A stretch of 64,000 nt of DNA, taken from NCBI GenBank assembly GCA_947502495.1, contig CANNAC010000001.1, positions 618,906 to 682,905 of the forward strand, in the 5' to 3' direction. The notes beneath the pieces are model-generated. The model was not told the origin of the DNA. It ran no database searches and worked only from the letters and a program-made list of their open reading frames with translations. Made by a program: the position numbers and the translations under genes. Source of the stretch: an uncultured Flavobacteriaceae bacterium (GTDB taxonomy: Bacteria > Bacteroidota > Bacteroidia > Flavobacteriales > Flavobacteriaceae). The first letter of the stretch is position 1. Each line of letters opens with the position of its first letter. Shown here piece by piece: positions 25,508 through 46,702 of the stretch.

Positions 25508-26677
25508 TTATTCGTTTAGTAACTCTTTAATTCTGTTTTCTAATGTGCTACCAGAAATTTTTCCGCTAGCAATTCGACCTTGTTTATCTACTAGCATTTT
25601 ATAGGGTATAGACTCTACGCCATATCTAAAAGCAATGGTTTTATTTTTATCTAGAATATGCGTATTCCAAGTTAGTTTGTCTGTTTCAATAGCACGCAAC
25701 CATTCTGGTGATCCTTTATCTTCACTAACGCTTAAAATAACAAGTCCTCTGTCTTTATATTTATTATATAATTGCACAAGATTTGGATTCGTAGCTCGGC
25801 AAGGAGCACACCAACTCGCCCAAAAATCGACAAGAACTACTTTTCCTTTTAAAGAAGCCAAAGACATGGTTTGCCCGTTAGTATTTGGCCCACTTAAGGT
25901 GTAAGCCATAGGTCTGTAGGTTTCCGTTTTACTTCGTTGCAGTTCTTTTTCTTCTAGACTAATAATATCTTTATGGATTAACTTAATAGCAGCCACATTT
26001 TTAATCTCATCAGTTAATGTATCGTGAAGCTTTCTTAAGTTTTCTGTAGAAAAACTATGATAATTTTCTTTTAAAACAAAAGGAGTAAAGTGCGAATTAT
26101 TATTCGCAGCAATAAATTCCATAACAAATGTTATTTTTTCAATTTGTAAGTTTTCTAAATCGGTATTTAGAATGGAAGTTCTTTTGTTTGCCGTTTGCGG
26201 AGATTTGTATTTTAAGAATAATGCACGTTCCTTATAATCAAAATCATCCATTTTAGATTTATAATCAAAATACACTTTTTGAGTATCCGAATTGGAAGAA
26301 GTAGAGGAAAGAAATAAATTGGTATTTAAAAACATATTTATTTCAGATGCATCTACTAAAAATTTGTACATCACATCACTTTCATCCACTTTAATCGCAT
26401 AAAACTCCGGTTGATTAGATATACCTTTATAAGTAAAAGCCTTTTCCTTAATAGAAATAGTATCCATTAAAGTAAGTGTATCGCTTTCTACTTTATAAAT
26501 ATAAGCCGTGTTTAAATGGTTGTTAAAAGTGGTTCCTCTAACAACAAATTCGTTTGCTAATAAAGCTTCCGGAGCTTTATTGTTTTCATTTACTGTTATA
26601 GACTTCTCTTTTTCACAGCTTGATAAAGCCAATAGTAAAAGAGAAAGTACTAGAAAATGAGGGAGTTTTTTTAGCAT
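25508..26677 (-). CDS. TlpA/ResA-type thiol-disulfide oxidoreductase lipoprotein (DUF4369-like N-terminus)
   Basis: Lipobox LSS-C; DFWASWCAPCR CxxC; YGVESIP cis-Pro loop. Confidence 0.88.
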   Translation of the reverse strand: MLKKLPHFLVLSLLLLALSSCEKEKSITVNENNKAPEALLANEFVVRGTTFNNHLNTAYIYKVESDTLTLMDTISIKEKAFTYKGISNQPEFYAIKVDESDVMYKFLVDASEINMFLNTNLFLSSTSSNSDTQKVYFDYKSKMDDFDYKERALFLKYKSPQTANKRTSILNTDLENLQIEKITFVMEFIAANNNSHFTPFVLKENYHSFSTENLRKLHDTLTDEIKNVAAIKLIHKDIISLEEKELQRSKTETYRPMAYTLSGPNTNGQTMSLASLKGKVVLVDFWASWCAPCRATNPNLVQLYNKYKDRGLVILSVSEDKGSPEWLRAIETDKLTWNTHILDKNKTIAFRYGVESIPYKMLVDKQGRIASGKISGSTLENRIKELLNE

Positions 26678-35523: not shown

Positions 35524-36102
35524 TTGGAAGAACAAGATTTTATAGATGATTTAAGAGCAGGAAAGCAATTTGCCTATGGAAAGCTATTGGATTTATTTCA
35601 GCAAAAAGTATTCGCTACTTGCATCTCCTTTGTTCCAAATAAAGAGGATGCCGAAGATATTGCACAAGACGTTTTTGTAGAAGTTTTTAATTCGATACAT
35701 AAGTTTAAAGGAAACTCTAAATTATCTACTTGGATTTATAGAATCACTACCAATAAGTGTCTGGAATTTATTCGGAAAAAGAATACGAAAAAGCGTTTTG
35801 CGTTTTTACAATCGTTAACCGGAAATGATATTGCATTAGATAAAACAAATTACTTTACAGAGATAAATCATCCAGGAATTGTCTTAGAACAGAAAGAAAC
35901 TAGTGACACCTTATTTCTTGCAATTAATAAACTACCAGAAGCACAACGAATAGTATTTACATTAAATAAAATAGACGATAAAAGCTATAAGGAAATTAGC
36001 GAAATTACGGATAAAAGTATCAGTTCTATTGAGTCTTTATTGTTTAGAGCAAAGAAGAATTTACAAATCTCATTAGAACATTTTTATAAAAATGAAAAGT
36101 AA
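35524..36102 (+). CDS. ECF sigma-70 factor
   Basis: DAEDIAQDVF, STWIYRITTN (region 2); LPEAQR..FTL, SYKEISE, SLLFRAKK (region 4); TTG start. Confidence 0.93.
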   Translation: MEEQDFIDDLRAGKQFAYGKLLDLFQQKVFATCISFVPNKEDAEDIAQDVFVEVFNSIHKFKGNSKLSTWIYRITTNKCLEFIRKKNTKKRFAFLQSLTGNDIALDKTNYFTEINHPGIVLEQKETSDTLFLAINKLPEAQRIVFTLNKIDDKSYKEISEITDKSISSIESLLFRAKKNLQISLEHFYKNEK

Positions 36103-36133
36103 GCGCAAGTTTTTACAAATTTATGCATCTTAA
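36103..36133 (+). promoter_or_regulatory. Candidate ECF promoter P1
   Basis: GCGCAAGT-N15-CATCTTAA; CAAGT 36106-36110, CATCT 36126-36130. Confidence 0.7.
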
Positions 36134-36138
36134 TATAT

Positions 36139-36450
36139 ATGGAATCAAATAAAAACATACAAGAAAAAATAGATAACGCGTTTAAAGCTGCCGAAGCTAT
36201 AGAGCCAGTATCTGTATCTCCTTTTTTTAAAGATAAAACCATGCAACGAATGTTCTCTGTAAAAGAAGAAGAAAAAGTTGCTTGGTCTTGGTTCTCACCA
36301 AAATTACAGCTTGCTACTTTGGCTTGTGTGATTGTCATAAATGTAATAGCATTTACGCAAGTAAATAAAACAAGTTATGATGAGAATATTAATCAATTTG
36401 CAGAATCGTACGGTTTAAAGACTAGCGACTCTAACTCTTTATTAAATTAA
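36139..36450 (+). CDS. Putative anti-sigma factor (single TM)
   Basis: Directly downstream of the ECF sigma; short cytoplasmic N-terminus, VSPFFKDK, one TM. Confidence 0.6.
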   Translation: MESNKNIQEKIDNAFKAAEAIEPVSVSPFFKDKTMQRMFSVKEEEKVAWSWFSPKLQLATLACVIVINVIAFTQVNKTSYDENINQFAESYGLKTSDSNSLLN

Positions 36451-36983
36451 TGAATATGAAAAAAAATACCGTTTTATATATTTTACTTGTCTTTTTAGTC
36501 CTTTTTAATGGTTTTTTTCTTTTTAACTTTTTAGGAGAAATAAGTTCCGATAAAGGGAACGAAACGAAAGACCCAATGCGCTTTGTAAGGCAGCAATTAA
36601 ATTTGAGTGCATCGCAAATAGAAACTTTTGAAATTATAAACAAAGAACATCATCAAAAAATGAGGGGTTTTAATGATGATTTAAGAGGCTTAAAAGACGC
36701 GTTGTTTAATAATATTTCTGAAAATTCTTTAGATGAAGAAAGTGTCGACTCTATTGTAACCTTAATTGGTGAAAAGCAAAAGGTAAAAGAAATGGAAATT
36801 TATGATCACTTTAAAAGTATTCAAGAACTTTGTGATGCAAAACAAAAAGAAAAATTCAAGAAGATATTAAAAGATGCTATTCGTAGAGGTGATGGAAATA
36901 GACCTCCGCATCCAGAAGGTCAAAAAGGTCAAAAAGGTCGAGAAGGAAATGGGCATAGACCGCCTCCACCAAACGATTTTTAA
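36450..36983 (+). CDS. Spy/CpxP/ZraP-like periplasmic heavy-metal-sensor protein
   Basis: N-terminal TM, QLNLSASQ (LTxxQ-like), helical body, Pro/Gly-rich tail. Confidence 0.75.
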   Translation: MNMKKNTVLYILLVFLVLFNGFFLFNFLGEISSDKGNETKDPMRFVRQQLNLSASQIETFEIINKEHHQKMRGFNDDLRGLKDALFNNISENSLDEESVDSIVTLIGEKQKVKEMEIYDHFKSIQELCDAKQKEKFKKILKDAIRRGDGNRPPHPEGQKGQKGREGNGHRPPPPNDF

Positions 36984-36999
36984 TACCTAAATAATAAGT

Positions 37000-37032
37000 A
37001 AAAGACTCTTCCATAGGAAGGGTCTTTTTTTT
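37000..37032 (+). terminator. Intrinsic terminator
   Basis: AAAAGACTCTTCC/GGAAGGGTCTTTT stem (one G-U) plus T run. Confidence 0.8.
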
Positions 37033-37054: not shown

Positions 37055-37085
37055 GCACAAGTAATTTCAATTAATACCATCTAAA
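37055..37085 (+). promoter_or_regulatory. Candidate ECF promoter P2
   Basis: GCACAAGT-N15-CATCTAAA; CAAGT 37058-37062, CATCT 37078-37082. Confidence 0.7.
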
Positions 37086-37113: not shown

Positions 37114-37398
37114 ATGAAAAGTAGCACATTTAAAACAATAGTATTGGTTTTCGGACTAACAGTATGTATGTCAAATTCTAGTTTTGCACAATCGCAAGAC
37201 AGACAACAAAAGACACCTCCAACCTTTAGTGAGTTAGTAAAAGAAATGGATGCCAATGAGGATGGGAAACTTTCAGAAGATGAACTTAAAGGACCTTTAA
37301 AAGATAATTTCGATAAAATAGATACCGATGAAGATGGGTTTATTACAGAAGAAGAATTTGACAAAGCACCAAAACCAAAAGGTAGAGGAAAGAGCTAA
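37114..37398 (+). CDS. Secreted two-EF-hand protein
   Basis: Signal ending SFA-Q; loops DANEDGKLSEDE and DTDEDGFITEEE. Confidence 0.9.
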   Translation: MKSSTFKTIVLVFGLTVCMSNSSFAQSQDRQQKTPPTFSELVKEMDANEDGKLSEDELKGPLKDNFDKIDTDEDGFITEEEFDKAPKPKGRGKS

Positions 37399-37518: not shown

Positions 37519-38235
37519 ATGAAACAAATAAAAAGAGGTATCCATTTTCTTTTTGTGTCTTTAACATGTAGCACTTCCTTACTAACTTTCCATGCTTGTA
37601 CTAGCGATGACGTTATTACAACAACAGTAGAAGAAGTAGACGACACCGATTTTGAACCAACAGATTGGACTACAATAACACATAGTAGTGATGTAGACCC
37701 CAATATGGAAGAGGTTTTTGATGACAACACCGTAAAAAAACTAGAAATTGTTATTACAGAAGCGCGTTGGCAAAGTATGCTAGAGGATATGACAGAAACC
37801 TATGGAGCATTTGGAGCAGGCGCAGCTACCAGAACAATGAATACCAAAGAAGGTTCGATTTTTGTTCCTGCTGGAGTATTCTATAAAGGACTAGAATGGT
37901 ACCGAGTTGGTGTGTCTTTTAAAGGGGATTCTAGTTTACAAAGTAGTTGGCAAAATGGGATTTTAAAACTATCCTTCAAATTAGATTTCGACTTGTTCGA
38001 TAAGGATTACCCACAAATAGAAAACCAACGCTTTTATGGTTTTAAAAAATTAAATCTTAACAATAATTTTGATAACAAATCCATGTTGCGGGAAAATGCA
38101 ATTAGTGATGTCGATAAAGATTCAGGAATGGTACCATCTTATACAGCTTTTTATAAAGTGTATATAAATCATGGAGATGGAACTGAGTATTTTGGTTTAT
38201 ATACTCTGGTGGAAGAAGTGGATGATACCGTTTAA
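37519..38235 (+). pseudogene. CotH-kinase-family lipoprotein, 3'-truncated
   Basis: Lipobox FHA-C; VGVSFKGDSSL, KLSFKLDFD, FYGFKKLNL, YFGLYTLVEEVD; stops immediately after this motif, before the DxD catalytic region. Confidence 0.7.
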
Positions 38236-39034: not shown

Positions 39035-39065
39035 GCACAAGTTTTTTGATAATAACACATCTAAA
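39035..39065 (+). promoter_or_regulatory. Candidate ECF promoter P3
   Basis: GCACAAGT-N15-CATCTAAA; CAAGT 39038-39042, CATCT 39058-39062. Confidence 0.7.
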
Positions 39066-39091: not shown

Positions 39092-39628
39092 ATGAATAAC
39101 AACAACTTAAAAACAACCATAACCATATTTAGCATGTTACTATGTTTTAGCCTTTTTGCGCAAGGACCTCCAGGAGGCGGACAAGGTGGTAGAGGCGGTG
39201 GAAAAGGACAGCAAAGAGAAAAACCAGATGCATCCGAAATTCTAGACAAACTAGATACCAATAGAGATAACCTTATTGATAAAGACGAAGCTGCTGCAGA
39301 TAAACGTGGAAAAATTGCAGAAGATTTTTATGAAATAGATACCAATGATGATGGGTTTATTGATTTAGAAGAACTGAAAGATTCTTTAAACGACAGAAAG
39401 AAACCGAAGAAAATTTCCGCTAAAAAAATAATAGAGGAAGTAGATGATAATGGAGATGAAACCTTAAACGAATTAGAGGTTGCAGCAAAAGGAAAGAAAG
39501 CACTTTTTGAGAATTTTAGAGAAATAGATACGAATGAAGATGGAGAACTGGATCTAGAAGAACTAAAAGTGTTTTTCAAAAAAGATGCGGATGACGATAA
39601 AAAATCAAAGCGTAAAAAAAGAGATTAA
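39092..39628 (+). CDS. Secreted four-EF-hand protein
   Basis: Signal ending LFA-Q; Gly-rich linker; loops DTNRDNLIDKDE, DTNDDGFIDLEE, DDNGDETLNELE, DTNEDGELDLEE. Confidence 0.9.
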   Translation: MNNNNLKTTITIFSMLLCFSLFAQGPPGGGQGGRGGGKGQQREKPDASEILDKLDTNRDNLIDKDEAAADKRGKIAEDFYEIDTNDDGFIDLEELKDSLNDRKKPKKISAKKIIEEVDDNGDETLNELEVAAKGKKALFENFREIDTNEDGELDLEELKVFFKKDADDDKKSKRKKRD

Positions 39629-39637
39629 TTATTCAAA

Positions 39638-40738
39638 ATGGGTAAAATGAGAAATGTATATAAAGCAGTAACCATAGTGTTAATGGGTATATTTGTTGGT
39701 TGCAAAAGCAATTCACATAGTCATGATGGTTCCGAAGCGCATACACATGCTACGGATTCTAAATCTATAAATAATACAGATTATTTTGGGGAGTACGATC
39801 TAGAAGATGCAAGTTATGGTACAAAAACAAAAGTAACTATTAAAGGCGATCAACGTGTAATGGTAACAAATGCATTACCAAATCATAAAACTGGGGAGTT
39901 TCCAAATTCAGGAAACCCTAATACCATTTCGGTACAAAATAAAACCTATAGTTTTCCTGTAAATCCAAAATATAAAGGAAATGCAAAATGGGTAAGAGAG
40001 CCTGGTGTGGCTTTAAATGGAATAAAATTCGAACCAGGAACTGCCGAAGTTGTAGTTTGTGATACCGGCGAAAACTATCGTGTGGAAGCGCTTCAAGATG
40101 TTATTGATCTGGGATTAGATTTTAATCATGCACATGTACAACCAACTGGTGCATACCATTATCATGGTACACCAACTTCTGTTATTGCAGATTTTGATAG
40201 CGGACAAGATTTAGTGCATGTTGGATTTGCGCATGATGGTTTTCCTATGTATTACTCCAAAAGTGGTAAATATAAACCAAGCTACAAACTTTTAGACGGA
40301 GACCGAGAAGGCGAAGATTGTACATACAGTACGCATAAAACTATTGACATTTCTGTAGGTGGACATCATGATGGAACCTATGGTTCCGATTTTGAATATG
40401 TAGAAGATTCAGGTGATTTAGATGCTTGTAACGGAATTACTATAGATGGAAATTATATGTATTTAGTGACTACCGAATTTCCATACATCAGCAGATGTTT
40501 AATGGGCGATTATGAAGAAGCTAGGCCTCAAGGTGCTGAAGGAAGAAGAGCAAATGGAGGAAATGGAGGACGTCCAAATATTTCAGAATTAATTAGTGAA
40601 ATGGATACGAACAAAGATGGAAAACTATCCAAGGAGGAAGTGAAAGGACCGCTAGCCGAGGATTTTTCAAAAATAGATTTGAATAAAGATACGTTTCTTA
40701 CTAAAGCCGAATTGGAAAAAGGACAAAGTAAACGCTAG
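39638..40738 (+). CDS. YHYH-domain lipoprotein with His-rich N-terminus and two C-terminal EF-hands
   Basis: Lipobox FVG-C; SHSHDGSEAHTH; NALPNH, GVALNG, GAYHYHG, GDLDACNG; DTNKDGKLSKEE and DLNKDTFLTKAE. Confidence 0.88.
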   Translation: MGKMRNVYKAVTIVLMGIFVGCKSNSHSHDGSEAHTHATDSKSINNTDYFGEYDLEDASYGTKTKVTIKGDQRVMVTNALPNHKTGEFPNSGNPNTISVQNKTYSFPVNPKYKGNAKWVREPGVALNGIKFEPGTAEVVVCDTGENYRVEALQDVIDLGLDFNHAHVQPTGAYHYHGTPTSVIADFDSGQDLVHVGFAHDGFPMYYSKSGKYKPSYKLLDGDREGEDCTYSTHKTIDISVGGHHDGTYGSDFEYVEDSGDLDACNGITIDGNYMYLVTTEFPYISRCLMGDYEEARPQGAEGRRANGGNGGRPNISELISEMDTNKDGKLSKEEVKGPLAEDFSKIDLNKDTFLTKAELEKGQSKR

Positions 40739-40802: not shown

Positions 40803-40833
40803 ACGCAAGTTAATTTCACTAAAGACATCTAAA
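40803..40833 (+). promoter_or_regulatory. Candidate ECF promoter P4
   Basis: ACGCAAGT-N15-CATCTAAA; CAAGT 40806-40810, CATCT 40826-40830. Confidence 0.7.
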
Positions 40834-40857: not shown

Positions 40858-41628
40858 ATGAAAAACTTATTTAAATTAACATTTCTAGCACTGTTTTTAA
40901 TAACAGGATTCATTGCTTGCTCGAGCGATGACAGTAATTCTTTAGTCGATGGAGAAGAGGAAGAAGGAGGAGAAGAAGAAGTGGTAACAGAATTACATGC
41001 AGCATACGCAGCATTTAATACCGAAGCTGTAGATATTTATTTATCTAATGATGGCGCATCTGTAACGATAGAAACCACTGGTTTACCAAATCACGAAACC
41101 GTGTATTGGGGAGAAGGTAATGCACTTTACAGAGCAGAACCAGATGTGGATTTAACACCATCTATTATGTCTAGTAATAACAATGCAGTAAGTATTACTG
41201 TAGATGCTGTGCCAGATTTAACAGGTAGCACAGTAAGTACCAATTTTGATACGATAGGTATTGCCGTTAGTGGAGCATCTATTTTTAATGATCAAGAAGG
41301 TGGCGGTGCTTTAGATGCAGCAGCGGCTAGTTTAGATTGGACGGGAGCACACATTGGCCCTGGAGTTTACCACTACCATTTAGAGCCTAAAGCATTTTCA
41401 GATGACGATGAAAATCTAGTTGGTGTATTATTAGATGGCGTTTTTCTTTACGGAAGAAAGTGTAATGCAGCAGGATCTTATCCTTCAGATTTAGATGCAT
41501 CAGGTGGTCATACAACTGCTACGCAATATACAGATGGTCAAGAAGAATACCATTACCATATTATTAACGAATTATATTCAAATACAGGTTCATATATCGC
41601 ATTTGCAGGACCTTACCAAGGATACTAA
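40858..41628 (+). CDS. YHYH-domain lipoprotein
   Basis: Lipobox FIA-C then SSDD; TGLPNH, IGIAVSG, GVYHYHLEP, DLDASGGH, EYHYH. Confidence 0.88.
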   Translation: MKNLFKLTFLALFLITGFIACSSDDSNSLVDGEEEEGGEEEVVTELHAAYAAFNTEAVDIYLSNDGASVTIETTGLPNHETVYWGEGNALYRAEPDVDLTPSIMSSNNNAVSITVDAVPDLTGSTVSTNFDTIGIAVSGASIFNDQEGGGALDAAAASLDWTGAHIGPGVYHYHLEPKAFSDDDENLVGVLLDGVFLYGRKCNAAGSYPSDLDASGGHTTATQYTDGQEEYHYHIINELYSNTGSYIAFAGPYQGY

Positions 41629-42246
41629 ATGAAAGCTTTTAAACTATATTTATTACTTATTTCTATTTTTCTTATTGCTTGTGACAGTACAACCAACAAG
41701 AAAGATATCACTGCTGGCGCTATAGCTAAAACGCAAATAGATACTGCTGCCGTGGTTAATAAAGATAGTTTAATTTTAAATGGAAATAAAGGAGTTTGGT
41801 CTTATAAAGATCAACCGTTTACAGGCTATGCGGTTCGATTCTATGCCAATGATTCTTTAAAAGAAAGAACAGGTTTTTTAAATGGTAAAAAACAAGGAGT
41901 CTATAACGTTTGGTTTGAAAACGGCGTTTTGAAATTAGAATCTAATTATAGTCACAATGTATTGGAAGGCATATACAAAACATGGTGGAATAACGGTGTT
42001 TTAGCATCGGAAACTAACTATGTAAAAGGGAAAAAACAAGGGGTAGAACAAAAATGGTTTTCTAATGGGGAATTATCCAAAAAAAGCAATTTATTAGAAG
42101 GTAAAGAAGATGGTTTACAGCAAGCTTGGCTAGAAAACGGAAAGCTATATGTAAACTATGAAGCTAAAAACGGACGTATTTTTGGAATGCGTCGTGCGAA
42201 CTCTTGTTACCAATTAAAAGACGAAGTGGTTATTAGAAAAAAATAA
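41629..42246 (+). CDS. MORN-variant repeat lipoprotein (YwqK-like annotation)
   Basis: Lipobox LIA-C; tandem NGKKQGVYNVWFENG-type repeats. Confidence 0.85.
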   Translation: MKAFKLYLLLISIFLIACDSTTNKKDITAGAIAKTQIDTAAVVNKDSLILNGNKGVWSYKDQPFTGYAVRFYANDSLKERTGFLNGKKQGVYNVWFENGVLKLESNYSHNVLEGIYKTWWNNGVLASETNYVKGKKQGVEQKWFSNGELSKKSNLLEGKEDGLQQAWLENGKLYVNYEAKNGRIFGMRRANSCYQLKDEVVIRKK

Positions 42247-42250
42247 GCTT

Positions 42251-42916
42251 ATGAAAAATCTATTTATTATTACGCTAATCCTTTTTACAAGTTGTAATAC
42301 GGAAGTAAAAAAAGAAAATATTAAAGTTGTTGAAAATAGCAGAGTAGCTTATTTACCTTTTTATGATGACGAATCGTTTACGCCCAAATGGATAACTCCA
42401 AATACGGAAGAAGAAAAAACATTTCATAAAATCCCAGATTTTTCATTAACCAATCAATTAGGAGAAACGGTAAGTCAAAATACATTTGAAAATAAGATAT
42501 ATGTAACCGATTTCTTTTTTACTAGCTGCCCAGGTATTTGTCCGAAAATGACAGGTAATATGGCACTAATTCAGGAAGCATTCAAGGACGATAACGAGGT
42601 TTTATTATTATCGCATTCTGTAATGCCAACTACAGATTCTGTATCTGTTTTAAATACCTATGCTAAAACCTATGGAGTTATAGAGAATAAATGGCATTTG
42701 GTTACTGGAGATAAAAAGGATATTTATACCTTAGGAAGAGAGCAGTATTTTGTGGAAAATGATTTGGGAGAACCAAAAAATATAAACGATTTTTTACATA
42801 CCGAAAACTTTCTGCTAATAGATAAAAACAAGCACATTAGAGGCATTTATAATGGCTTAAATAGAGCTTCCGTAGCACAGTTAATTACCGATATAAAAGC
42901 ACTTAAAACGGAATAA
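42251..42916 (+). CDS. SCO1/SenC-family copper chaperone lipoprotein
   Basis: DFFFTSCPGICPKM (CxxxC) and FLHTENF conserved His. Confidence 0.93.
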   Translation: MKNLFIITLILFTSCNTEVKKENIKVVENSRVAYLPFYDDESFTPKWITPNTEEEKTFHKIPDFSLTNQLGETVSQNTFENKIYVTDFFFTSCPGICPKMTGNMALIQEAFKDDNEVLLLSHSVMPTTDSVSVLNTYAKTYGVIENKWHLVTGDKKDIYTLGREQYFVENDLGEPKNINDFLHTENFLLIDKNKHIRGIYNGLNRASVAQLITDIKALKTE

Positions 42917-42988: not shown

Positions 42989-45900
42989 ATGTATCCAATA
43001 ATGTCGAAAAAATTATTCTGTAAACTTTCTATTTTTTTATTTCTTTGTTCTTGTGCGACCTATAAAGCACAGTACAATACCAACACTTCAAATACTAGTT
43101 TTCCGGATAAAGAAATCGAGCATTCGTTCTATTTAATTGGGGATGGAGGTAATTCGCCTATGGGAGAATCTTCCAAAACACTACAAGCTTTTAAAGCGGA
43201 ATTGGCAAAAGCTACCAAAAATAGTACAGCACTTTTTCTAGGAGATAATATTTATCCGAAAGGATTACCTAAAGAAGAAGCGGAAGGTAGAGCACTTGCA
43301 GAACATCAGTTAAATATTCAAACGCAAACCACAGCAGATTTTAAAGGAAAGGCTATTTTTATTCCTGGAAATCACGATTGGTATAGCAACGGACTTAAAG
43401 GATTAAAACGCCAAGAGAAGTATATCGAGAATATTTTAGGTAAAGACACTTTTTTACCAGAAAATGGCTGTCCTATAGAAAAAATACATGTTTCCGATGA
43501 TGTCGAATTAATACTTATTGATACACAATGGTTTGTTACCAATTGGGATAATCATCCAACCATTAATGACGATTGTGAGATTAAGACTAGAGCATTGTTT
43601 TTTGACGAATACAGTAGTTTAATAAAAAAAGCTAGAGGTAAAACAACCATCGTAGCTCTGCATCATCCTATGTATACCAACGGTATTCATGGCGGTCAAT
43701 ATGATTTTAAAAGTCATATGTCACCTGTTCCTGTTTTGGGGTCTCTTAAAAATCTACTGCGAATCACTACTGGAGTTGCGAATGCAGATATACAAAACAA
43801 ACGATATAATGAATTAAGAAAACGACTGATAACTATTTCGCAAGAAAACAGTAAAATCGTTTTTGTTTCTGGGCATGAGCATAATTTACAGTATTTAGTA
43901 GAAGATAATTTACGTCAAATTGTAAGTGGTTCTGGTTCTAAAGTTACTGCTACTAGAAATGTTGGTGGTGGTCAGTTTTCTTACGGAACGCCAGGATATA
44001 CCAGATTAGATGTGTTTAAAGATGGTTCTTCATATGTACGTTTTTATTCGGTAGAAGACGATAAAATTGTATTTGAAACCGAAGTACTAAAGCCAGATAC
44101 AGATAAAACAGATACCATGTATCCGAAAACATTTCCGAAAGAAATGACTGCTTCTATTTATTCCGAAGAAGAAACCGATAAATCTGGTTTAACAAAATTT
44201 CTTTGGGGAGAAAGATATAGAAGTACCTACAGCACAAAGGTTACCGTGCCAACAGTAGATTTAGACACGCTTTTTGGAGGTGTAACTCTTGGTCGTCGTG
44301 GCGGTGGAACACAATCTAAATCCTTACGTCTTATTACTAAAGATGGGAAAAAACAATATGTAATGCGTGCCATGCGAAAACTTGGTACACAGTATTTACA
44401 AGCTGCATTTTTTAAAGATCAATATCTGGATGGTAAGTTCGACGATACCGCAGCAGAAGATTTAATTTTAGATGTATTTACGGGTTCGCATCCGTATGCA
44501 CTTTTTACGGTTGGTGATTTATCGGATGCTGCAGGCATTTATCATTTAAATCCAAAACTATATTATGTTCCGAAGCAAAATGCACTAGGAGATTATAACG
44601 AACAATTTGGGGATGCTTTATATATGATTGAAGAACATGCTTCTGATGGGCATGGAGATCAAGCAAGTTTCGGATTTTCGAATACCGTTTTAAGCACTAC
44701 AGATGTGATGAAAGAGCTTCATCAAGATGAAGATATGGTCATGGATGAAGCAGCTTATATTCGTGCGCGTTTATTCGATATGTTAATTGGCGATTGGGAT
44801 AGACATCAAGATCAATGGCGTTGGTTAGAGTTTAAAGAAAATGGTAAAAAAGTATACCGACCTTTACCAAGAGATAGAGATCAAGTGTTTTCTATCATGT
44901 CGGATGGTGCAATGCTAACCTCGGCCGTAGCTCTTATTCCTACCGCTAGATTGTTACGAAGATATGATGATGATTTAGTAGATGTTCAAGGTGTAAATGT
45001 AGAACCGTATCCTTTAGATATGGAATTTATTATGCAATCGGATAAAGGTGTTTGGGATGCCCAAGTAAAAGTCATTCAAGAAGGGGTTACCGATGCCGTT
45101 ATTGATACCGCTTTTTTAAATTTCCCAGAAGAAGTTAGGGGAGAAGTAACCGATAAAATTAAAGCAACTTTAAAAGCACGTCGCGCTAATCTTCAAAAAA
45201 TATCGGATAGATATTACGACTTGGTAAATAAATTCGCAGTTATAAAAGGTACAAATAAAGACGATTGGTTTGATGTGGAGCGTTTGTCTAACGGAAAAAC
45301 AAAGGTTACAGCATATCGAATTAAAGGTGGAGAAAAAGCAGATATATTTCATGAATGTATTTATGATAATGAGAAAACTAAAGAAGTATGGATTTATGGT
45401 TTAGATGACGATGATACTTTTCATGTCTTTGGAAAGGATACCAAAAACCAAATGCGTGTGCGTTTAATTGGCGGACAGAATAATGATGTATATAATATTG
45501 AAGAAGGAAAACGTATTACGTATTACGATTATAAGTCTAAAGAAAATACCATTATTACTAATAAAGGGCATCAAAAATTTTCAGACGATTACGAAACGAA
45601 TGTGTACGATTACAAGAAATTAAAAAATAATATAAATCAGATTATTCCAACCATTGGTTCGAATCCAGATGATGGCTTGAAAATAGGGGTTTCTAATACC
45701 TATACGGTTTATGGTTTTGAACGCAATCCTTTTACATCACAACATACACTTTCTGCTGCTTATTATTTTGCAACTAATGGTTTCGAATTGGATTATAAAG
45801 GAGAATTTGCTAATGTATTTAAAGGATTGAATTTCGGATTAGATCTTCATTTTAACAGTCCGAACTATTCAATAAACTTCTTTGATTATGGGAACTCTAC

Positions 45901-46702
45901 TCCAAATTTTGAAGCAGATGATAACGAGGCTTTCGATGTCGATTTAGATTATAACCGAGTTAAAATAAGAACATTTTTTGCGATGCCTTCTTTAGTATGG
46001 CGCGGACAATTAGGAGGTTATTTTAAAGTTGGTGTTTTATTTGAAAACAATGAAGTAGAAAGAACTAACGGACGATTTATTAACTCATTTATAGGAGATG
46101 GAAACGAAGTAAGTAACACTTTTTATGGTGCAGATGCTGCATATTCTTTTGAAAATAAAGACAATGAAGCATTCCCAACTTTAGGGATGCAATTTGGTTT
46201 ACAAGTTGGTTTTAAAAACAATATAGATTCTAATAAAGGATTTGGGTATATCATTCCAGAATTAGGTTTTGATTATAAATTAATCCCGAGTGGTAAATTA
46301 GTTTTGGCAACCAATTTTAGCGGTCATTTTAATTTAGGAGATAATTTTGAGTTTTATCAAGCAGCAACTTTAGGGGCAAATACTGGGTTACGTGGGTATA
46401 GAAACGAACGTTTTACCGGTAAAAGTGCATTTGTGCAGAGTACCGATTTACGTCTTAATTTTTTAAGTCTTAAAACCAACTTATTGCCAATAAGCCTTGG
46501 TGTTTATGGTGGTGCCGATTATGGTCGTATTTGGGTAGATAATGATTTGGTAGCAAATAGTTCTTATAATAGCGACAGTTGGAACACTTCCTTTGGGGGT
46601 GGTGTTTTTGTTACTATGGTAGAAATGTTTACTGCAAATGTATCTGCTTTTAATAGTGACGATGGGATGCGTTTCGCTTTTAAATTAGGCTTTGGGTTTT
46701 AA
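42989..46702 (+). CDS. Lipoprotein: metallophosphoesterase + kinase-like domain + C-terminal beta-barrel
   Basis: Lipobox LCS-C; GD, GDNIY, GNHDW, HH, GHEH phosphoesterase motifs; GDWDRH and DRD; amphipathic strands ending FKLGFGF. Confidence 0.85.
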   Translation: MYPIMSKKLFCKLSIFLFLCSCATYKAQYNTNTSNTSFPDKEIEHSFYLIGDGGNSPMGESSKTLQAFKAELAKATKNSTALFLGDNIYPKGLPKEEAEGRALAEHQLNIQTQTTADFKGKAIFIPGNHDWYSNGLKGLKRQEKYIENILGKDTFLPENGCPIEKIHVSDDVELILIDTQWFVTNWDNHPTINDDCEIKTRALFFDEYSSLIKKARGKTTIVALHHPMYTNGIHGGQYDFKSHMSPVPVLGSLKNLLRITTGVANADIQNKRYNELRKRLITISQENSKIVFVSGHEHNLQYLVEDNLRQIVSGSGSKVTATRNVGGGQFSYGTPGYTRLDVFKDGSSYVRFYSVEDDKIVFETEVLKPDTDKTDTMYPKTFPKEMTASIYSEEETDKSGLTKFLWGERYRSTYSTKVTVPTVDLDTLFGGVTLGRRGGGTQSKSLRLITKDGKKQYVMRAMRKLGTQYLQAAFFKDQYLDGKFDDTAAEDLILDVFTGSHPYALFTVGDLSDAAGIYHLNPKLYYVPKQNALGDYNEQFGDALYMIEEHASDGHGDQASFGFSNTVLSTTDVMKELHQDEDMVMDEAAYIRARLFDMLIGDWDRHQDQWRWLEFKENGKKVYRPLPRDRDQVFSIMSDGAMLTSAVALIPTARLLRRYDDDLVDVQGVNVEPYPLDMEFIMQSDKGVWDAQVKVIQEGVTDAVIDTAFLNFPEEVRGEVTDKIKATLKARRANLQKISDRYYDLVNKFAVIKGTNKDDWFDVERLSNGKTKVTAYRIKGGEKADIFHECIYDNEKTKEVWIYGLDDDDTFHVFGKDTKNQMRVRLIGGQNNDVYNIEEGKRITYYDYKSKENTIITNKGHQKFSDDYETNVYDYKKLKNNINQIIPTIGSNPDDGLKIGVSNTYTVYGFERNPFTSQHTLSAAYYFATNGFELDYKGEFANVFKGLNFGLDLHFNSPNYSINFFDYGNSTPNFEADDNEAFDVDLDYNRVKIRTFFAMPSLVWRGQLGGYFKVGVLFENNEVERTNGRFINSFIGDGNEVSNTFYGADAAYSFENKDNEAFPTLGMQFGLQVGFKNNIDSNKGFGYIIPELGFDYKLIPSGKLVLATNFSGHFNLGDNFEFYQAATLGANTGLRGYRNERFTGKSAFVQSTDLRLNFLSLKTNLLPISLGVYGGADYGRIWVDNDLVANSSYNSDSWNTSFGGGVFVTMVEMFTANVSAFNSDDGMRFAFKLGFGF

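Follow-up and report, generated by a model that had tools for sequence, protein, structure and literature searches.

A 64,000-nt window of DNA from an uncultured Flavobacteriaceae bacterium, by which we mean the whole stretch analysed here, contains three open reading frames (ORFs) for lipoproteins on the same strand, to which we refer as YHYH, MORN and SCO after their domains:

40858..41628, + strand: YHYH lipoprotein, 256 aa; PF14240, 32.6 bits (cut-off 25)
41629..42246, + strand: MORN_2 lipoprotein, 205 aa; PF07661, 43.8 bits (cut-off 29.6)
42251..42916, + strand: SCO1/SenC lipoprotein, 221 aa; PF02630, 87.8 bits (cut-off 22.8)

The YHYH stop codon directly abuts the MORN start codon (...TAC TAA ATG..., 0 nt) and 4 nt separate MORN from SCO (...TAA GCTT ATG...). 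ORF list and junction sequences thus agree with the ORFs and gaps given in a first-pass annotation of this DNA, which had proposed that YHYH is a copper client of SCO in a dedicated metallation pathway, with MORN as a scaffold. On the opposite strand, the operon region holds no ORF of at least 60 aa, and Rfam gave no RNA family match between 35.0 and 47.2 kb. When all ORFs of 110 aa or longer from about 21 to 56 kb were annotated with Pfam, no cytochrome oxidase gene was revealed, in line with the absence of such genes nearby that the annotation had reported. One metatranscriptome contained a matching contig, of 240 nt and lying inside the YHYH gene only, and a search of the literature yielded no description of this operon.

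Seventy-nine related genome loci were gathered via the YHYH protein, with ORFs called by a longest-ORF rule and counts approximate at the margins; the selection of loci relied on similarity to the query genes, and comparative correlations among them are phylogenetically non-independent. The order YHYH-MORN-SCO is found in 79 of the 79 loci and is kept from Flavobacteriaceae to Flammeovirgaceae, Saprospiraceae, Roseivirga and Algoriphagus, that is, across several families of at least two classes of Bacteroidota, whereas the genes on either side are freely shuffled. With starts assigned from alignments, the median inferred gap is 4 nt between YHYH and MORN (n=74) and -4 nt between MORN and SCO (n=34), and well over 90% of the inferred gaps fall within about 20-35 nt of zero. 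This arrangement is far beyond chance. In addition, several genomes harbor a second whole module, whose YHYH, MORN and SCO proteins are about 30%, about 30% and about 47% identical, respectively, to those of the first. As all three proteins of the second module have diverged from their first-module counterparts, the whole block has diverged as a unit. Sequence comparison supports the view that the three genes constitute an obligate, co-inherited and co-duplicated unit. The nearest named relative is Bizionia arctica, whose YHYH protein is 88% identical to that of the window, which identifies the source of the DNA as a marine flavobacterium of the Flavobacteriaceae. Close homologues of the module also occur under the labels Thalassovita (Alphaproteobacteria), Porticoccaceae (Gammaproteobacteria) and eukaryotic transcriptome (L073; P0443; P0137), the first two being metagenome bins; mis-binning or contamination, rather than transfer, is the most likely explanation of these labels.

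All three proteins start with a Cys-ended signal peptide, confirming the lipoboxes recognized in the first-pass annotation, and the Cys is widely kept among relatives. The signal peptide ends in ...GFIAC21 in YHYH (Cys kept in 89 of 91 relatives), in ...FLIAC18 in MORN (80 of 86) and in ...LFTSC15 in SCO (86 of 87). Mature YHYH begins with C-S-S-D-D, and the consensus after the Cys is the same in 89 relatives (S, S, D, D/S), so that the likeness of Cys-SSDD to the surface-export signal of Bacteroidota lipoproteins, to which the annotation had drawn attention, is borne out. Published export signals of this kind are SDDFE, from F. johnsoniae, and C-X-K-(D/E)2, from C. canimorsus (PMC5080379). 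MORN and SCO usually carry a Lys right after the Cys, and no acidic pair. The simplest reading of these N-termini would place YHYH on the cell surface and MORN and SCO facing the periplasm.

In YHYH, each of the motifs listed previously was found in the sequence, namely LPNH (H79), AHIG (H165), YHYH (171-174), GGH (H218) and a second YHYH (231-234), and the motif His residues are each at least 97% conserved in 91 relatives. The conserved positions in these relatives are C21, H79, D160, H165, Y171-H172-Y173-H174, D193, D213, H218 and Y231-H232-Y233-H234. The sequence contains two copies of a unit L-D-x(3-4)-H-x(6-13)-Y-H-Y-H, LDWTGAHIGPGVYHYH and LDASGGHTTATQYTDGQEEYHYH, the first made up of D160/H165/H172/H174 and the second of D213/H218/H232/H234; the PF14240 match spans profile positions 6-112 of 193 only. 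D160, H165, H172 and H174 are invariant in both YHYH subfamilies and agree with the His triad plus Asp described by Iyer et al. (2021) in the only published YHYH prediction that we found, a Zn-binding site in a tail-associated hydrolase of jumbo phages (PMC7824862); the published site corresponds to the first unit of the operon YHYH. In cyanophages, YHYH domains are fused to tail or baseplate components (PMC7824862). The signature D-x4-H-x6-YHYH plus LPNH is common to the operon YHYH and the YHYH family (PF14240), cyanophage structural proteins included, whereas the second complete Asp plus three-His unit is an addition of the operon-linked subfamily relative to canonical PF14240. A canonical YHYH paralogue encoded upstream of the operon keeps unit 1, but in its second unit, LDACNGITIDGNYMYLV, only the Asp remains and all three His are missing; in the alignment, NGITID...YMYLV of the canonical paralogue stands opposite GGH...YHYH of the operon YHYH.

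We sorted 250 distinct YHYH ORFs from 160 loci by the second His triad (H218/H232/H234). Where the triad is present, 137 ORFs are directly followed by MORN and SCO and 13 are not; where it is absent, 0 are directly followed by MORN and SCO and 95 are not (plus 5 fragments). Twelve of the 13 exceptions lie in a locus holding a MORN-SCO pair, and the remaining one has just a MORN gene beside it. Of all the sequence clues, this contrast is the one that most specifically suggests that MORN and SCO may serve the second site.

An AlphaFold2 (AF2) model of YHYH built with 150 sequences reached a predicted local distance difference test score (pLDDT) of 73.6 and a predicted template modeling score (pTM) of 0.72. 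No PDB neighbor of the model below E = 1 was found, and the model matches predicted cyanophage YHYH-domain proteins in BFVD (E 2e-6). Viral contigs scanned with a tighter YHYH alignment contained no relatives; the BFVD match and the literature suggest a phage link of YHYH. We know of no solved structure or tested function for the YHYH domain, which is widespread in bacteria, diatoms and cyanophages. Within the main subfamily, a further Cys of the protein, Cys202, shows conservation of at least 90%; second-module YHYH lacks it.

Several known types of copper protein were considered and rejected. YHYH does not qualify as a lytic polysaccharide monooxygenase, because the mature protein starts with the lipidated Cys21 and SSDD instead of the histidine-brace His, and because no Pfam or PDB fold match was obtained. 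It is not a multicopper oxidase or cupredoxin either, as it has two HxH motifs where four are needed, no Pfam match and no PDB fold below E = 1. Neither YHYH nor MORN resembles PCuAC (DUF461), given that there was no Pfam match and that the expected Met-rich motif, H(M)X10MX21HXM, was not seen on reading the sequences.

SCO, whose fold is thioredoxin-like and which weakly matches AhpC/TSA and Redoxin, carries its predicted copper ligands in a CPGIC motif (C93, C97) and at His183. Alignment with the B. subtilis Sco structures 1XZO and 1ON4 and with 4HDE, a lipoprotein SCO from Bacillus, at E values of 1e-18 to 1e-20, brings C93-PGI-C97 and H183 into register with the copper ligands of B. subtilis Sco, and these three residues are invariant in 87 SCO sequences, second modules included. 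SCO thus has in common with B. subtilis YpmQ/Sco the PF02630 match, the thioredoxin-like domain, CxxxC plus a distal His, and a membrane tether outside the cytoplasmic membrane. An exhaustive search of cluster representatives retrieved many related SCOs. In Cytophagales and Chitinophagales, a transmembrane-anchored SCO is encoded within COX2-COX1-CyoE-COX3-COX3-COX4-SCO-DUF420 operons. Flavobacteriaceae have a separate SCO with a transmembrane anchor, encoded at a conserved position flanked by RseP, a site-2 protease, and FeoB, a ferrous iron transporter (L217 6791-7492, L230 6827-7495); this SCO possibly functions in oxidase assembly. Aequorivita sp. Q41 encodes both a SCO of this RseP-FeoB type and a triplet-type YHYH 79% identical to that of the window (P0012). 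By direct alignment, a lipobox and an N-terminal LPxY...FTPxW motif are found only in the operon-type SCOs of first and second modules. Since it has a lipobox and a motif of its own while the other SCOs are transmembrane-anchored, the operon SCO is an additional, differently anchored paralogue. In contrast to the oxidase-assembly Sco proteins, it has no oxidase neighbors and is always partnered with YHYH and MORN, and its predicted lipid anchoring would argue against a role as an oxidase assembly factor.

For MORN, the AF2 model is confident (pLDDT 84.6 overall, about 98 in the core) and shows a run of β-hairpins forming a single-layer sheet. A Foldseek search with the model returned MORN1, SET7/9, MORN4-Myo3a and junctophilin (E 1e-4); the same single-layer antiparallel β-sheet is seen in eukaryotic MORN1, MORN4-Myo3a and junctophilin as well as in bacterial YwqK-type MORN_2 proteins. 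Judging by the model, the likeness to protein- or membrane-interaction modules fits an adaptor role, and to this extent the scaffold proposed in the first-pass annotation gains support. The C-terminal tail after the last strand has lower model confidence and contains a conserved G-M-R-R-A-N-S-C-Y, in which Cys193 is invariant. The operon MORN differs from known MORN adaptors in being a lipoprotein predicted to face the periplasm, in its invariant-Cys tail and in having no YwqJ-type toxin partner. NCBI names its orthologues 'toxin-antitoxin system YwqK family antitoxin'. We rejected a YwqK-type antitoxin paired with a YwqJ-like toxin, as the neighbors of MORN are YHYH and SCO in all 79 loci; Pfam annotation of the ORFs found no toxin domain (deaminase or nuclease) in the window. 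With no YwqJ-type toxin nearby, the YwqK name reflects the shared MORN_2 repeat only.

Beyond what the first-pass annotation had described, the operon sits in a larger cluster with a sigma factor of the extracytoplasmic function (ECF) type, EF-hand proteins and, just upstream, the canonical YHYH paralogue:

35524..36102, + strand: ECF-type sigma-70 factor; TIGR02937, 95.8 bits (cut-off 42.9)
36106..36130, + strand: promoter-like motif P1, 9 nt before the anti-sigma start
36139..36450, + strand: putative anti-sigma factor, 103 aa, one hydrophobic segment; conserved place between the sigma and CpxP-like genes
36450..36983, + strand: membrane-anchored CpxP/Spy/CnrX-like periplasmic protein; LTxxQ-like motifs by reading the sequence
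37000..37028, + strand: intrinsic-terminator-like hairpin (13-bp stem, then T run) ending the sigma/anti-sigma/CpxP-like unit
37058..37082, + strand: promoter-like motif P2, 31 nt before the EF-hand gene
37114..37398, + strand: secreted EF-hand pair protein, 94 aa; EF-hand Pfam families
37519..38235, + strand: truncated CotH kinase-like gene, 238 aa; PF08757 profile positions 2-92 of 322
39038..39062, + strand: promoter-like motif P3, 29 nt before the second EF-hand gene
39092..39628, + strand: secreted protein with several EF-hand motifs, 178 aa; EF-hand Pfam families
39638..40738, + strand: canonical YHYH lipoprotein with C-terminal EF-hand, without the second His triad; PF14240, E 1.1e-52, plus EF-hand families
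40806..40830, + strand: promoter-like motif P4, 27 nt before the operon YHYH start codon

The motifs P1 to P4 follow the shared pattern (C)GCAAGT-N15-CATCTAAA, which was found by reading the intergenic regions. The 64-kb window has exactly four copies of its core, CAAGT-N15-CATCT, all of them on the + strand, in intergenic DNA and within the same 5 kb. About 0.1 exact matches would be expected, an estimate derived from base frequencies and not from shuffled sequence, since the shuffles were counted for matches with up to one mismatch. When about 160 related loci were scanned on the cluster strand, the motif recurred upstream of anti-sigma orthologues (68), EF-hand gene orthologues (64), the operon YHYH (58; seen in 22 of the 79 loci centered on the triplet), the sigma gene (28), the canonical YHYH (24) and CotH (12), and also before VTC-domain, arylsulfotransferase-like and Cthe_2159 carbohydrate-binding genes and further YHYH paralogues. 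The exact motifs and their recurrence before orthologues lead us to conclude that the operon is preceded by a putative ECF-type promoter of its own and forms part of a conserved candidate regulon. A scan with the sigma-70 consensus gave fewer matches than in shuffled sequence; Bacteroidota promoters differ from that consensus. Presumably the motif is read by the neighboring sigma factor, for which 33 of the 79 loci have an orthologue no more than 6 kb from the triplet (61-81% identity, apart from two outliers near 40%).

The anti-sigma role of the small membrane protein is suggested by its position, its Bizionia counterpart being without a precomputed Pfam match. The CpxP/CnrX-like protein, a candidate sensor or chaperone, matches PF13801 Metal_resist with an E value of 1.1e-5 at 26 bits, below the 29.2 cut-off, and CpxP with an E value of 0.008; it ends in an unusual Gly/Pro/His-rich tail, GDGNRPPHPEGQKGQKGREGNGHRPPPPNDF, where related metagenome contigs show a 9-base length difference. 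The set is reminiscent of CnrH-CnrY-CnrX, in which an ECF sigma factor, a small membrane protein and a periplasmic CpxP/CnrX-like protein are likewise followed by genes for extracytoplasmic metal-related proteins, but the Metal_resist match here stays below the Pfam cut-off and the output genes are not efflux pumps. Among the motif carriers elsewhere are genes for VTC (polyphosphate), arylsulfotransferase-like and Cthe_2159 proteins and for a CotH-LTD protein that is full-length and bears a type IX secretion signal (L022 8156-8905, L051 8164-9618, L058 1330-2916, L082 1836-4619). In one locus (L120 4702-5859), the motif precedes the gene for a di-haem cytochrome c peroxidase (CCP/MauG family), upstream of an EF-hand gene and a canonical YHYH-EF-hand paralogue. 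MauG-type enzymes modify partner proteins, and the peroxidase, a single case, could be relevant to the module.

The EF-hand pair gene is found within 6 kb of the triplet in 61 of the 79 loci and directly upstream of it in 26. The EF-hand of the canonical YHYH and the free 94-aa EF-hand protein are of one type, and the fusion may be a hint of joint action between EF-hand proteins and YHYH domains. Straight after its lipobox Cys, the canonical paralogue has a His-rich stretch, SNSHSHDGSEAHTHATDS. In 57 of 80 loci fetched through it, a canonical YHYH lies near a YHYH-MORN-SCO module. Orthologous CotH ORFs measure about 470-530 aa, and a related metagenome contig is collinear with the window over the truncated gene, so that we take the truncation to be probably genuine rather than an artifact of assembly; a DUF6090-like gene lies between the truncated CotH gene and the second EF-hand gene. 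Downstream of SCO, positions 42989-46702 encode a 1237-aa protein with an N-terminal calcineurin-like metallophosphoesterase and a C-terminal Omp85-like barrel, a gene that comes after SCO in the window and otherwise just in close relatives (L087, L092, L093, L103). About 15 kb upstream of the operon, on the - strand, 25508-26677 encode a thioredoxin-like/AhpC-TSA protein with DUF4369, which appears unrelated to the operon.

Based on these results, we suggest that the three genes form one extracytoplasmic metal-handling module, which would be transcribed from its own ECF-type promoter as part of the regulon of the neighboring sigma/anti-sigma/CpxP-like set. The lipid-anchored SCO would bind copper via Cys93, Cys97 and His183 and hand it to YHYH, loading the second Asp plus three-His site (D213, H218, H232, H234). 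MORN would act as an elongated β-sheet adaptor that holds SCO and YHYH together, its Cys193 tail possibly taking part in the hand-over, and loading of YHYH would take place in the periplasm, after which its acidic N-terminal export signal would probably direct it to the cell surface. We infer here that the metal is copper, that it passes from SCO to YHYH and that the proteins form a complex. A dedicated copper-insertion module of this design, in which SCO loads the second site of YHYH with MORN as adaptor and under ECF control, is a tentative proposal that may well be right, at somewhat short of an even chance. The dedicated metallation pathway of the first-pass annotation is thus supported in part, through the obligate unit, the kept SCO ligands, the extra SCO paralogue and the linkage with the second YHYH unit.

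The closest precedent for a SCO client outside respiration is, by analogy, found in Streptomyces lividans, in which the radical copper oxidase GlxA depends on Sco for its maturation (PMC4736821, PMC3603459). In the S. lividans Sco/ECuC/DtpA system, as would be the case here, a SCO encoded in an operon with copper-handling genes metallates an extracytoplasmic, non-respiratory enzyme (PMC4736821, PMC3603459). The S. lividans Sco also serves cytochrome oxidase, its client is galactose-oxidase-like and its partner is a PCuAC-type chaperone, whereas here the SCO is a dedicated paralogue, the candidate client is YHYH and the partner is a MORN-repeat lipoprotein.

Several points weigh against a copper-insertion module. 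Copper binding by YHYH is a candidate property read from the sequence, and an Asp plus three-His site also suits Zn, Fe or Mn; the only published prediction for the YHYH domain is a Zn-dependent hydrolase (PMC7824862). Cyanophage virions with YHYH assemble without SCO, so the ancestral site cannot need SCO. The 137-versus-0 contrast represents a few deep clades and not 245 independent events, and the YHYH model, at a pLDDT of 73.6, is of moderate confidence only. If YHYH is surface-exposed and SCO and MORN are periplasmic, loading must precede export. Finally, the rest of the regulon (EF-hand, CotH, VTC, arylsulfotransferase-like and carbohydrate-binding proteins) has no evident copper theme.

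Copper might also flow in the reverse direction or be buffered, with YHYH capturing copper in the outer envelope (at the surface or in the periplasm) and passing it via MORN to SCO, either to supply an oxidase under copper scarcity or to detoxify an excess, and with the CpxP/CnrX-like sensor switching the regulon by metal. SCO proteins often receive copper from a chaperone encoded beside them, as in PCuAC/PccA-Sco pairs, which counts in favor of such a flow, as do the weak Metal_resist match of the adjacent sensor, the His-rich N-terminal tail of the canonical YHYH, typical of metal-scavenging proteins, and the conditional expression implied by an ECF-type promoter. However, transmembrane SCOs placed for inner-membrane oxidases already exist in Bacteroidota, and at least Aequorivita sp. 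Q41 has one besides a triplet-type YHYH; moreover, duplication of the lipoprotein SCO with its own YHYH would be unneeded for a shared supply line, and no outer-membrane transporter or efflux pump lies alongside the operon. We consider reverse flow or buffering possible but unlikely.

The thioredoxin-like fold of SCO and its weak AhpC/TSA and Redoxin matches would also suit a thiol-disulfide oxidoreductase, which could keep MORN Cys193 or YHYH Cys202 reduced or resolve mixed disulfides, YHYH itself being a Zn-dependent hydrolase in accordance with the published prediction (PMC7824862). The invariance of MORN Cys193 and the at least 90% conservation of Cys202 in the main YHYH subfamily are consistent with such a role. 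Yet the copper-specific His183, unneeded by a pure reductase, is invariant in all 87 SCOs, second-module YHYH has no Cys202 but keeps MORN and SCO, and the linkage to the second His triad would be left unexplained, making this alternative distinctly unlikely.

Irrespective of the role of SCO, MORN might instead be an inhibitor or immunity protein that holds a lytic, envelope-active YHYH inactive until export. This idea would accord with the antitoxin naming at NCBI, with the prediction that phage YHYH domains are tail-associated lytic hydrolases (PMC7824862), and with an export-signal-like N-terminus that is present on YHYH and not on MORN or SCO. The antitoxin name, however, derives only from the MORN_2 repeat, YHYH is not known to have toxic activity, and canonical YHYH paralogues in the same clusters do without a MORN partner; we regard an inhibitory MORN as quite improbable. 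Least probable of all is that the three lipoproteins lack direct biochemical coupling and stay adjacent merely through co-regulation in an envelope-stress regulon, since, for all the heterogeneity of that regulon (EF-hand, CotH, VTC, arylsulfotransferase-like and carbohydrate-binding proteins), their order is fixed in 79 of 79 loci while the flanks shuffle, the 0-4 nt gaps or short overlaps are conserved, the genes were duplicated as a block, and the linkage depends on the YHYH subfamily.

Returning to copper insertion by SCO, dependence of metallation on a SCO protein is already known; what is plausibly new is the candidate client, YHYH, and the candidate adaptor, MORN. SCO proteins are known mainly as assembly factors of respiratory oxidases, and non-respiratory clients are rare, with Streptomyces GlxA as the main example. 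If the proposal is correct, a dedicated SCO paralogue locked to a His-rich YHYH protein in many marine Bacteroidota would represent a new branch of bacterial copper trafficking and the first experimentally tractable clue to the YHYH domain. The contrast between one-unit and two-unit YHYH proteins names residues for mutation, and the promoter motif defines a regulon for an inducer search. A bolder extension, which we hold to be distinctly doubtful, is that the operon-linked YHYH proteins are a new copper-protein class of unsolved fold, with two Asp plus three-His sites that are maybe binuclear, loaded by an outer-envelope SCO paralogue and MORN before surface export and carrying out copper-dependent chemistry on extracellular polymers. 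Were this the case, it would provide a first functional foothold on the YHYH domain of diatoms and of cyanophage structural proteins.

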